From NCBI RefSeq assembly GCF_054482525.1, contig NZ_CM137006.1: a stretch of DNA of 64,000 nt; one strand, written 5' to 3'. Position 1 is the first letter of the stretch; every line of letters starts with the position of its first letter. Of this stretch, positions 50,801 through 53,800 are shown one piece after another. Made by a program: the position numbers.

Positions 50801-53800
50801 ATCAGCGTTTTCAGCGGCTGGACGATGTTTTGCTCCGACCATGTGTCATGACGCCAGCGAATAAACGTCCCGCCGCCGCGTCGACTAAGCAGCACGCCTT
50901 CGCTCACCAGTTTTGCCAGCGCCTCGCGCAGTGAATTACGCGATACGCCGAGTTGCATCGCCAGTTGACGTTCAGCGGGCAACTTCATGCCCGCCTCCAG
51001 GTTTTTTTCATCAATCAGCGCCCGCACACGATCGGCAACCTCATCTGACAGGCGTCTGGGTAAAACAATCATTAAGGAATCATCCACGTTAAGACATAAG
51101 CCTGAAGCGTGGTGATCACGCCCACCATACAGGTGAAGATCAGGCTGTGTTTGACGGTAAAGCGGAACAGATCTGACTCTTTGCCTACCAGGCCTACCGC
51201 CGCACAGGCGATAGCGATAGATTGCGGAGAGATCATCTTACCGGTGACACCACCGGTGGTGTTGGCGGCAACCAACAACAGGTCAGAAACGCCAATTTGT
51301 TGTGCTGCAGTGGCTTGCAGGGCGGCGAACAGGGCGTTAGATGAGGTATCCGATCCGGTCAGGAAGACACCAAGCCAGCCGAGGAACGGCGAGAAGAAGG
51401 TGAATGCATGGCCGGTGTGCGCCAGTGCCAGCGCCAGCGTTGATGACAGTCCGGAATAGTTCGAGATAAAGGCGAACGCCAGCACCATACCGATGGAGTA
51501 GATAGGCAGAGCCAGTTCTTTCAGCGTGCTGCCGAAGGTGCTGATAGCGTCAGATGGTTTCATCTTCAGCCAGACAATCGAGAGCAGGGCAGCAAAAAGA
51601 ATGGCGGTACCGGTGGCAGAGAACCAGTCGAACTTAAACACGGCGGCATACGCTGTCGCTTCGCTGACCACTGGCGGCATACGGGCAACCAGTTTATCGA
51701 GGTACGGCACCGGAATATTGATCACCCATTCATACAGCGCACCACCCGAAGCGAACAGGGCTTTAAACGGTGGAATACTCCACAGCGTTACGGTGGCGGT
51801 CAGGAACAGGAACGGTGTCCAGGCGCGAAGCACCTGACCTGCGGTGTAACCGGTGTGAGCCAGCGTCATATCAACCTGTGACGCCCCCAAGTCACCGAAG
51901 CGGAATACGCGCACTGGTTGCCAGCGTTTGAGGAACAGCGTCAGGCAGAGCAGTGATACCAGCGAAGAGATAATGTCTGGCAGTTCCGGCCCAATGAAGT
52001 TAGAGCTGAGGTATTGAGCAATGGCAAACGAACCACCTGCAACCACGACCGCAGGCCACGTTTCTTTGATTCCGCGCCAACCGTCCATAATCGCCATGAT
52101 CCAGAACAGCACGATAATGGTCATAAACGGCAGCTGACGCCCCACCATCTGACCAATCTCAAAGCTGTCGATGCCTGTTACCTGCCCGGCGACCAGAATC
52201 GGAATGCCCATCGCACCAAATGCCACTGGCGCGGTGTTAACAATCAGGCACAGTCCGGCGGCGTACAGTGGTTTAAAGCCCAGACCGACCAGCAATGCGG
52301 CGGTAATTGCTACCGGTGCGCCAAAGCCTGCGGCTCCCTCAAGGAAAGCGCCGAAACAGAAACCGACGATCAGCATTTGCAGTCGCTGGTCAGGGGTTAT
52401 CGAAAGAATAGACGAGCGGATGATGTCAAACTGCCCGGTTTTCACCGAGATCTTATAGACGAACACTGCTGCAATAATGATCCACGCGATGGGCCACAAA
52501 CCGTAGAAGAAGCCATAAATCACCGAGGCCAGCGCGTTAGCGACCGGCATTTTATAGAACAGCAAAGCCACGGCAAGGGCGATTGCCACCGTCCATGAGG
52601 CGGCGACATAACCTTTGAGTTTGAGCTTAATCAGCGCAAAGAAGAAAAACAGGATGGGAAGCGATGCTATCAGGCTGGAAAGCCAGATATTCCCGGCGGG
52701 ATCGTAGTTTTGTTGCCAGAGATTCATTGCAGGTCTCCTGCAGTCCACACACGCCGTGTAATGAGTCTGTTGCCCATCTCTTTGTCACACGTTGTGTAAA
52801 AGTGGCACTGCCAATTGTGTTGTGTAGGGATAATGACAATGAATGGTTAACTAAATGTTATGCATTGGCAACATTGATGTGAGTTTTAATTGGGGAATTG
52901 TGAACCAGAGGTCAGATAAGCGAAGAATTGGTAGGGCCAATTCTTGGTGGAGGGAGATGTCTGGTAAAGAAAAGGGCAATCCTCATCAGAGAATTGCCCT
53001 TAGTCACACTAAGTTAATGGATCATTACCACTGAATACCGGCACCGAGTGCGGCGGAGTATTCACCCTGGCTATTGGTACTACCTTGTAATTTGTAGACC
53101 CAACGACCATTGGCGCTCACCATCGACACACCTAAAGCAACAGCCGATTCACCATTGTAAGTACCGCCACCAATAGAGGCCATGCTGGCACCTGGAGTGT
53201 AAGCCTGCGGCAGACCGGTCATTGCCATTGCAGAAGCGATACCACCGCTCAACTTGCTTTCGGTTTTGGACAGTTTGTTATCCATCTCAACCATCCGCTG
53301 ATCGGTATATTGCTTCGTTTCCTGCACGCTTTGCTTCAGCTGCGCATAGTTCACTGCGTCGTTGTTGTTGACGCCAGCGGAGACGTTGCTGATGCGAGTC
53401 GTACCGCCATTACCACCACCGAGAGTGATGTTGCTGTAGTCTACAGAGCCATCAGCTTTGGTGTCGTAACGAACGCCGCCTGCCTCAGAAGACTTCAGCT
53501 GCGAAACGTTAACCGCATCGGTGGCATTAACACCTGCAGCAACGTTGGTGATACGACGCTGGTTGGTAGAAGAACCCACAGAGATGGTGTTTTCTTCGTT
53601 GGCCACGGAACCGGTACCCAGCGCGACGCTGTTGTCAGCGGCAGCAATGGAACCAGAACCAATTGCAACACTGTCTTTACCCTGCGCGTTGGCATCTACG
53701 CCATCGGTGTTGGTCTTGAAGTACTTGGTGCTACCGGTGGTTACAATGTCGCCAATACCGTTTTCGATATTAGTAACGCGAGTATCCAGATTAGTGACCT

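Follow-up and report, generated by a model that had tools for sequence, protein, structure and literature searches.

Two Palindromes between an Adhesin Gene and lldP in Escherichia coli Match the Published LldR Operators of the lldPRD Promoter

Introduction

In Escherichia, Salmonella, and Shigella, the mtl and lld operons are separated by operons of the sadBA type, which encode trimeric autotransporter adhesins (PMC3953254). This arrangement is found in a 64,000-nucleotide stretch of contig NZ_CM137006.1 (NCBI RefSeq assembly GCF_054482525.1; hereafter the window) that is 100% identical to E. coli PCN033. A first-pass annotation of the window drew attention to two palindromes upstream of lldP and to the adhesin operon that ends close to them. 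The locus raises the question of which regulator uses the palindromes, how they act on the lldP promoter, and whether the neighboring adhesin operon has any influence on lldP. The analysis presented here indicates that the region (52728–53024) is very probably the ordinary and well-characterized control region of the E. coli lldPRD operon for L-lactate utilization, read on the minus strand.

Results

The region is the exact intergenic region of 297 bp between a YadA-type adhesin gene and lldP, with all genes on the minus strand. The lldP gene (51072–52727, minus strand) encodes an L-lactate permease of 551 amino acids that matches the NCBIfam equivalog NF007740 with 1199 bits and carries the same name in the RefSeq annotation of the identical PCN033 region. 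The A of its ATG is at 52727 and a Shine-Dalgarno sequence (AGGAGA) at 52739–52734. The cognate regulator is encoded in the linked operon, as identified by a match to the lldR equivalog (NF007741, 497 bits against a cut-off of 311): lldR (50296–51072, minus strand) encodes a GntR/FadR-type regulator, and the solved structures nearest to LldR are those of PdhR. The third gene of the operon is lldD (49109–50299, minus strand), annotated in RefSeq as L-lactate dehydrogenase in the identical region. The intergenic region was found in 5420 out of 5426 complete E. coli genomes.

The distal palindrome, O1 (52926–52942, minus strand), has the sequence AATTGGTAGGGCCAATT (AATTGGCCCTACCAATT in the direction of lldP) and is a perfect AATTGG-N5-CCAATT palindrome whose perfect arms reach 9 bp (AAGAATTGG/CCAATTCTT, 52923–52945). 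The proximal palindrome, O2 (52800–52816, minus strand; AAGTGGCACTGCCAATT, or AATTGGCAGTGCCACTT in the direction of lldP), deviates by one mismatch and is located inside the transcribed leader of lldP. Both were described correctly by the first-pass annotation, as a perfect palindrome and an imperfect copy about 125 bp apart; the measured distance between the centers is 126 bp, with 109 nt between the sites. O1 and O2 are the only sequences in the whole 64-kb window with at most one mismatch to AATTGG-N5-CCAATT (two found, 0.21 expected by chance), and two such palindromes were reached in 2 out of 100 shuffles. With up to two mismatches, seven palindromes were found compared with 4.4 expected, which is unremarkable.

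Both palindromes have the 17-bp form of the LldR box (AAnTGGTCnGACCAnTT). O1 is identical to the LldR box AAtTGGcCctACCAaTT and O2 to the LldR box AAgTGGcactgCCAaTT of the K-12 lldP promoter (PMC10272880, Table 1 for the former), and the authors of that study state that their boxes agree with Aguilera et al. 2008. This comparison, which had been suggested as a check on the LldR-type assignment, bears the assignment out: judged by sequence identity, these are the LldR sites O1 and O2 that earlier studies described for the E. coli lldPRD promoter. O1 is invariant in six E. coli strains and in Escherichia, Kluyvera, and Silvania. The pair, in the form O1-N108/109-O2 upstream of lldP, is present in Silvania, in three Kluyvera, in one other enterobacterium, and in five lineages of Escherichia, including E. 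albertii, E. whittamii, and Escherichia sp. E1V33. In Kluyvera, Silvania, the other enterobacterium, and these named Escherichia, the core promoter/ArcA stretch between the operators is conserved together with the pair, and the flanking spacer diverges.

The transcription start was placed by means of the published ArcA site, which covers positions −49 to −7 of the promoter. This site, which consists of three direct repeats bound by ArcA-P, was found at 52844–52886 (plus strand) between O1 and O2, and the transcription start (+1) of lldPRD is therefore at 52837 (minus strand), corresponding to a leader of 110 nt. It follows that O1 spans −105 to −89 and O2 spans +22 to +38, with the lldP start site between the two operators. 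The start of lldPRD reportedly lies 110 nt upstream of the ATG, in agreement with +1 at 52837, and the operators are said to be located at −105 to −89 and +22 to +38, positions that were cross-checked only against the ArcA-derived coordinates. The stretch at 52844–52886 differs by one substitution from the published 43-bp K-12 ArcA site TGGTTAACTAAATGTTATGTATTGGCAACATTGATGTGAGTTT (PMC3798270, supplements), and the 15-mer GTTAACTAAATGTTA at 52846–52860, with 14 out of 15 positions matching the ArcA consensus, is the only match in the window with at most two mismatches. The location of the ArcA operator between O1 and O2 agrees with a previous description (PMC8689689).

From the sequence and its position relative to the start site, we infer a sigma-70 core promoter at 52843–52871 (minus strand), with a −35 element TTGCCA (52871–52866), a 17-nt spacer, and a −10 element AACCAT (52848–52843). 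It is overlapped by the ArcA-P site and is strongly conserved across genera. A sigma-70 consensus scan of the region did not call the lldP promoter because the −10 element is weak; a weak −10 element would fit an activator-dependent promoter. Visual inspection of the sequence around two conserved motifs, GTTCACA and CTCACA, gave no acceptable match to a CRP site (TGTGA-N6-TCACA).

The regulatory role of these sites is described in a number of studies. In genomic SELEX, the lldP promoter is the top LldR peak genome-wide; gel shifts likewise showed binding to it, and an lldR mutant no longer displays induction by lactate (PMC10272880). Reporter constructs revealed that both operators are required and that O2 must be located past the start site for repression (PMC7969014), and a further study found that the sites flank the start site and that the upstream site is needed for activation (PMC3424551). 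The binding of LldR, the need for both sites, and the binding of ArcA have been demonstrated by others on identical DNA.

How the two LldR sites act together is less clear-cut. The first-pass annotation read their spacing as the arrangement expected for looping repression by LldR. Repression by an O1–O2 loop is a published model (PMC8689689), and the centers of O1 and O2 are separated by exactly 12.0 helical turns, which puts both operators on the same face of the DNA. This spacing is compatible with a loop, the geometry of which we infer. A possible, if on the whole unlikely, alternative retains the same sites and the same regulator without a loop: LldR bound to O2 would repress on its own, as a downstream block or by hindering promoter escape, LldR bound to O1 would be an independent lactate-dependent activator, and the 126-bp spacing would be kept for other reasons. 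The expectation of looping is weakened by a massively parallel reporter assay at the lacUV5 promoter, in which proximal LldR sites gave no repression and LldR sites displayed neither distal–proximal synergy nor the periodicity of a loop, although the promoter in that test was a foreign one, the spacings were different, and LldR was present at chromosomal levels (PMC7804116). Furthermore, in an engineered sensor a 10-bp move of O1 relative to the −35 element had no effect, but induction was abolished when the distance of O2 from the −10 element was altered by 10 bp (PMC8689689), and LldR is described as mainly an activator (PMC10272880). A conserved gap is equally expected if each of the two sites is positioned relative to the promoter. 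On the other hand, the requirement for O1 and O2 together in repression speaks against the alternative without a loop (PMC7969014; PMC3424551). The spacing of an integral number of turns likewise counts against this alternative. Mutants with altered helical phasing reportedly behaved like O2 mutants, as summarized in PMC8689689.

A second regulator has to be considered for the palindromes themselves. O1 matches the PdhR box AATTGGTnnnACCAATT in 13 out of 14 positions, as listed in PMC7660256, and O2 is a weaker match. The same study identified the yibL-lldP spacer as a PdhR genomic SELEX peak and found a 3.3-fold increase of the lldPRD mRNA in a pdhR mutant (PMC7660256). LldR and PdhR are, in addition, close relatives. 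It is nevertheless improbable that the palindromes are primarily PdhR boxes with the pyruvate-sensing PdhR instead of LldR as their main occupant, because LldR has its strongest peak genome-wide at the lldP promoter, the induction by lactate disappears in the lldR mutant, and O2 is the poorer match to the PdhR box. A pdhR mutation was reportedly without effect, which also counts against PdhR as the main occupant. Binding of PdhR is most reasonably regarded as a further input at O1 and not as an alternative to LldR.

Upstream of O1, an intrinsic-terminator-like hairpin with a U tract is located at 52964–53001 (minus strand; AAGGGCAATTCTC-TGAT-GAGGATTGCCCTT, then TTCTTT). The stem-loop (53001–52972) consists of 13 pairs and a loop of 4, with the tail TTCTTTACCA, and folds with −20.4 kcal/mol for the stem-loop alone and z = −4.6 in its 76-nt context. 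In this strain, its start is 23 nt past the final base of the stop codon of the adhesin gene. The stem, the U tract, and the stop codon upstream on the same strand are the sequence features of an intrinsic (Rho-independent) terminator, and the hairpin is predicted to act as one. The distance to O1 is 29 nt from the foot of the stem and 21 nt from the end of the U tract, which makes the earlier estimate of ~25 bp a fair one. The hairpin does not belong to the adhesin in particular, since it is also found in K-12, which lacks the adhesin, with an unchanged distance to O1 and downstream of yibL and a REP. In the Salmonella counterpart, represented by the Rfam STnc380 consensus, the stem is kept and bases of the upper stem differ. 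The arms of the hairpin resemble an O1 half-site; a role as a third degenerate LldR/PdhR site was rejected because the half-sites run CAATT...ATTG with an 11-nt center, the reverse of AATTGG-N5-CCAATT.

The adhesin gene (53025–58277, minus strand) encodes a trimeric autotransporter adhesin of 1750 amino acids with the Pfam domains ESPR, YadA_head, YadA_stalk, and YadA_anchor. It is the positional orthologue of SadA/UpaG/EhaG, named “YadA-like family protein” in RefSeq and annotated as ehaG or upaG at the same position in other strains. The first gene of the adhesin operon (58321–59004, minus strand) encodes a SadB-type inner-membrane lipoprotein; a Pfam search with the 227-amino-acid protein gave no match, and its identity was settled through PDB 4C47 (E = 2e-70). 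The sadBA/upaG/ehaG locus has the same organization, a SadB-like lipoprotein gene followed by the gene for a YadA-type trimeric autotransporter, and is likewise located between yibL/mtlR and lldP (Grin et al. 2014, PMC3953254). K-12 carries a 5-kb deletion at this locus (PMC3953254). The adhesin operon, which had been regarded as inserted, is therefore ancestral, and it and the hairpin are old parts of the locus without a recent insertion. A search of the window for the 15 nt that are specific to K-12 after yibL (GAACACAGTATCTAC) gave no meaningful match, and the left junction of the K-12 deletion cannot be rebuilt from this strain.

The spacer between the adhesin gene and the hairpin is polymorphic. 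In most adhesin-bearing E. coli, 70–130 bp of REP/BIME sequence separate the stop codon of the adhesin gene from the hairpin, and REP/BIME elements are present in the spacer of PSJ-12, C51, ST131, and Seattle 1946 and partly in that of K-12. REP palindromes of the GCCTGATGCG...CTTATCAGGCCTAC and TAGGCCGGATAAGGCG...CGCATCCGGCA types are absent from the adhesin-lld spacer of the window, which belongs to the 535 out of 5426 complete E. coli genomes without REP/BIME at this position. That the adhesin operon ends right against the lldP regulatory region is thus accurate for this strain (23 nt from stop codon to hairpin and 29 nt from hairpin to O1) but describes a minority state.

These short distances on a single strand, together with the missing REP/BIME buffer that most strains have, raise the possibility that adhesin transcription leaks past the hairpin and alters lldP by interference at O1 or by added transcripts. 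Such read-through is very unlikely to matter, given that the 13 pairs, the folding energy, and the U tract are features of an efficient terminator and that K-12 has the same hairpin–O1 arrangement without the adhesin; an effect on lldP is pure speculation, and a literature search for a link between UpaG or EhaG and the regulation of lldP found nothing relevant among the papers listed. It is hardly credible that the palindrome and the hairpin work as RNA, either as the STnc380 small RNA or as an RNA derived from the 3′ end of the adhesin transcript, instead of as DNA operators: Rfam RF02055 (STnc380) aligns full-length to 52901–53010 on the plus strand with O1 and the hairpin drawn as stems, but the score of 28.9 bits (E = 8e-4) is far under the gathering score of 60 and does not place the sequence in the family, the hairpin has no U tract on the modeled strand, O1 should be little transcribed because it falls between the terminator and the lldP start, and the binding of LldR to DNA of these very sequences is published (PMC10272880). 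A literature search on STnc380 matched only “STnc3800” and returned nothing on the family.

Discussion

The preferred reading of the region is regulation of lldPRD by LldR from two DNA operators. LldR, the product of the second gene in the operon, would bind the two 17-bp palindromes O1 and O2 as dimers. Without lactate, both sites would be occupied and the promoter repressed, according to the published model by an O1–O2 loop with the core promoter inside it. In the presence of L- or D-lactate, the repression through O2 would be lifted and LldR bound to O1 would activate the promoter with its weak −10 element. ArcA-P bound at −49 to −7 between the operators would bring about anaerobic shut-off, and PdhR may bind O1 as well. 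The hairpin 21–29 nt upstream of O1 would act as an intrinsic terminator that insulates the lld promoter from its upstream neighbor, yibL in the case of K-12 and the sadBA-type adhesin operon here.

The closest known system is the lldPRD operon of K-12 (Aguilera et al. 2008, J Bacteriol 190:2997; Anzai et al. 2023, PMC10272880), with which the window shares both 17-bp operators and the 109-nt gap in identical form, the ArcA site (apart from the one substitution), the leader (bar point differences), the Shine-Dalgarno sequence, and the gene order lldP-lldR-lldD. The two differ by only a few point changes in the spacer and leader and by one extra base upstream of O1; upstream of the hairpin, the adhesin stop codon takes the place of yibL and one REP in K-12. 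Compared with most adhesin loci, the window has no REP/BIME to separate the stop codon from the hairpin.

The PdhR box of pdhR-aceEF-lpd is related to O1, which is bound by PdhR in genomic SELEX (PMC7660256), and the two regulators are paralogues. The E. coli pdhR promoter contains one box that overlaps the promoter, in contrast to the two boxes that flank the promoter here, and the main regulator of lldPRD is LldR, a dual repressor/activator, unlike at the pdhR-aceEF-lpd box. Like the lac (O1/O2/O3), gal (OE/OI), and ara (O2/I1) systems, lldPRD has operators that flank its promoter and are spaced by a whole number of helical turns, and full repression requires both of them. The LldR loop has the status of a model, whereas signatures of looping were reproduced for LacI, AraC, and GalR, and not for LldR, in the same reporter assay (PMC7804116).

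The map of the lldPRD promoter with O1 and O2 dates from 2008, and lactate biosensors routinely use it as a standard part; the identification of the two operators in the window is correct but ordinary, and its result is an annotation of the window with O1, O2, the ArcA site, the start site, and the terminator. There is a slim chance that, in the ~10% of E. coli that have lost REP/BIME, this strain among them, leaky termination couples adhesin expression to lactate uptake or gives rise to a stable STnc380-like 3′-end RNA. If so, the coupling would act through additional lldP transcripts or through transcription that interferes at O1, and an RNA comprising the terminator and O1 would correspond in E. 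coli to the STnc380 candidate of Salmonella. Studies of the insulation between both operons should take into account whether a strain has REP/BIME elements between the adhesin gene and the terminator.

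Two LldR Operators in the Adhesin-lldP Spacer

The complete intergenic spacer at 52728-53024 lies between two minus-strand genes, an upstream gene (58277..53025) for a YadA-type trimeric autotransporter of 1750 aa (ESPR, YadA_head, YadA_stalk and YadA_anchor domains) and the downstream lldP gene (A of the ATG at 52727; NF007740 equivalog, 1199 bits). On the same strand lldP is followed by lldR (NF007741, 497 bits) and then by lldD, the latter placed according to the RefSeq gene order in Escherichia coli PCN033 (mtlR, yibT, yibL, a DUF3251 lipoprotein gene, the YadA-like adhesin gene, lldP, lldR, lldD, trmL), a strain that shows 100% identity to the window across this stretch. 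The adhesin gene lies downstream of a minus-strand gene annotated DUF3251 (58321-59004) whose product is a clear SadB homologue (PDB 4C47, E = 2e-70); a search of the Pfam and NCBIfam copies with this homologue gave no match.

Two palindromes that the first-pass annotation had placed upstream of lldP were recovered at 52926-52942 (O1) and 52800-52816 (O2). O1, AATTGGTAGGGCCAATT, is a perfect AATTGG-N5-CCAATT whose perfect arms extend to 9 bp (52923-52945), and O2, AAGTGGCACTGCCAATT, differs from this pattern by one mismatch. They are the only matches with at most one mismatch in the 64 kb (0.21 expected); with two mismatches allowed, the whole window holds an unremarkable 7 versus 4.4 expected, so the signal lies in the quality and co-location of the two sites and not in an excess of the motif. 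Their centres are 126 bp apart, corresponding to 12.0 turns at 10.5 bp per turn.

The identification of both sites as LldR operators agrees with published K-12 data: the exact 17-mers AATTGGCCCTACCAATT and AAGTGGCACTGCCAATT turn up in three papers, one of which prints them as the LldR box pair of the yibL>lldP spacer, the top LldR genomic SELEX peak of K-12 and a fragment bound in gel shifts (Anzai et al. 2023, PMC10272880). The boxes are stated there to agree with Aguilera et al. 2008, and the study derives an LldR box consensus, AAnTGGTCnGACCAnTT. O1 also matches the PdhR box at 13/14 positions and forms a peak in PdhR genomic SELEX; in a pdhR mutant the lldPRD mRNA goes up 3.3-fold (PMC7660256). 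The first-pass observation is correct and its core interpretation right; the finding is already known, being a rediscovery of a promoter that was mapped in 2008 and is in wide biosensor use.

Promoter Architecture and Leader

Aguilera et al. 2008 reportedly place the lldP start site 110 nt 5' of the ATG, with O1 spanning -105 to -89 and O2 spanning +22 to +38. An independent check comes from the lldP ArcA site TGGTTAACTAAATGTTATGTATTGGCAACATTGATGTGAGTTT, located at -49 to -7 by Park et al. 2013 (PMC3798270) and found with one substitution at 52844-52886. With +1 accordingly at 52837, 110 nt ahead of the ATG, O1 falls exactly at -105..-89 and O2 at +22..+38. The 15-mer GTTAACTAAATGTTA (52846-52860) is the sole window match with at most two mismatches to the classical ArcA box. 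From the start site, the -35 would be TTGCCA (52871..52866, minus strand) and the -10 a weak AACCAT (52848..52843, minus strand), separated by a 17-nt spacer. A sigma-70 consensus scan of the window did not call the lldP promoter, which fits an activator-dependent promoter. PMC8689689 locates the ArcA operator, the -35 and the -10 between O1 and O2.

A GTTCACA motif between O1 and the -35 (52891-52897, minus strand) is shared by Escherichia, Kluyvera and Silvania within an otherwise diverging spacer; on inspection no CRP-type or other known site was recognised in it. Directly downstream of O2 the leader holds a small palindrome, CACA-N3-TGTG (TTACACAACGTGTGAC, 52786-52796), which is kept with an altered centre in Kluyvera and Silvania and has a near-copy 38 nt further on (52748-52761). 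The leader also contains a 17-codon upstream ORF (52724-52777, minus strand; ATGGGCAAC...CAATGA) whose stop codon overlaps the lldP start (ATGA). The frame is kept in K-12 with several amino-acid changes and is broken off after two codons in Kluyvera, so the ORF is probably non-coding.

Repression, Activation and a Proposed Loop

LldR sites on both sides of the start site are described in a summary in PMC3424551, where repression needs both sites and the upstream site is required for activation by lactate; PMC7969014 states that O1 and O2 are both required and that O2 must be positioned past the start site. In the best-supported mechanism, LldR dimers at O1 and O2 jointly hold a weak sigma-70 promoter repressed as long as lactate is absent. 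When lactate is present, repression through O2 is lifted and LldR at O1 activates; under anaerobic conditions ArcA-P occludes the core promoter, and PdhR adds a pyruvate input at O1.

A looping step between O1 and O2 is what we infer in addition. LldR might instead regulate from O1 and O2 without a DNA loop: a reporter library that reproduced the loop signatures of LacI, AraC and GalR yielded none for LldR (PMC7804116), and an engineered sensor tolerated a 10-bp shift of O1 (PMC8689689). The spacing of 12.0 turns, the requirement for both operators and reported phasing mutants favour a loop. Regulation without one appears rather unlikely.

The Probable Terminator and the Adhesin Operon

Between the adhesin stop codon and O1, the minus strand carries the hairpin AAGGGCAATTCTC-TGAT-GAGGATTGCCCTT (53001..52972), followed by TTCTTTACCA. 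The stem-loop alone folds at -20.4 kcal/mol and its 76-nt context gives z = -4.6 versus shuffles; the hairpin of the first-pass annotation is real. By its hallmarks it would be an efficient terminator. In principle, transcription might run past it into the lld control region.

A further idea of the first-pass annotation, that of an inserted adhesin pressing on the lld regulatory region, is mostly unsupported. According to Grin et al. 2014 (PMC3953254), Escherichia, Salmonella and Shigella have sadBA in the interval from the mtl operon to the lld operon, and K-12 bears a deletion of 5 kb; the adhesin operon is thus ancestral here and not an insertion. K-12 without the adhesin has an identical hairpin at the same distance to O1, preceded by one REP and yibL, and its homology to the window begins at ~53003, where the hairpin has its foot. 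Outside Escherichia this hairpin sequence is not kept; Kluyvera, for instance, has a different hairpin at the same place after its upstream gene, so that the locus generally has a terminator just upstream of O1.

Most adhesin-bearing E. coli (PSJ-12, C51/EhaG, ST131, Seattle 1946/UpaG) have 70-130 bp of REP/BIME after the adhesin stop codon and before the hairpin. This DNA is polymorphic in its presence, and the window is without it at 53002-53024 when compared with the E. coli loci L003:427-560, L004, L005 and L006. The REP-less state was detected by a junction-specific 45-mer in 535 of 5426 complete E. coli genomes, and the adhesin 3' end adjoins lldP in 4149 genomes of this set. EhaG-type strains have a copy of the direct repeat CTAAGGGCAA on either side of the REP block, and one copy is kept in the window; the REP-less state would be compatible with a deletion between these repeats.

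STnc380, a Salmonella sRNA candidate in Rfam (RF02055), aligns full-length to 52901-53010 (+) at a sub-threshold 28.9 bits versus a gathering score of 60. O1 appears in the STnc380 consensus as AAAAUUGGUAGGGCCAAUU, drawn there as a stem-loop. The consensus also has a hairpin, AAAGGGCAAUGGCA-UAA-UGCCAUUGCCCUU, with the same lower stem as the hairpin of E. coli and with a different upper stem that still pairs. Because operator palindrome and terminator hairpin form its two stems, the family looks like sadA-lldP intergenic DNA. This suggests that STnc380 represents the Salmonella sadA-lldP spacer, that its modelled structure may combine an operator palindrome with a terminator taken from the strand on which it lacks the U tract, and that Salmonella may share the adjacency of O1 and hairpin. 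STnc380 is discussed in none of the papers searched.

Conservation of the Two-Box Layout

The region is present in 5420 of 5426 complete E. coli genomes, and O1, O2 and all DNA from the hairpin to lldP are nearly invariant in six strains (K-12, EhaG, UpaG, ST131 and PCN033 types). A cross-genus alignment shows conservation of O1, O2, the stretch from -35 to +1 with its ArcA site, and portions of the leader, and divergence of the spacer from O1 to the -35 and of the DNA upstream of O1. This is the pattern one expects if functional operators are held a constant distance apart.

In a pattern scan for paired boxes (one genome per species, spacing range fixed by the pattern, no statistics drawable), the matches listed include O1-N109-O2 upstream of lldP in E. 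coli, E. whittamii, Escherichia sp. E1V33, at least three Kluyvera species, Silvania confinis and another enterobacterium, and a gap of N108 upstream of lldP in E. albertii; a Pantoea locus has N108. Also among the matches listed (L007-L126), paired perfect AATTGG-N5-CCAATT boxes 98-124 nt apart adjoin genes for LldR/PdhR-like regulators in Vibrio, Aliivibrio, Salinivibrio, Aeromonas, Marinobacter, Pseudomonas, Kushneria, Cobetia, Acidovorax and even Paenibacillus (for example L007:3478-3628, L015:4253-4405, L026:1860-2013 and L049:5778-5906). In the first eight of these genera such pairs occur at 117-124 nt. Given paired boxes near such regulators across these genera, the two-box layout seems common and widespread in this GntR/FadR subgroup.
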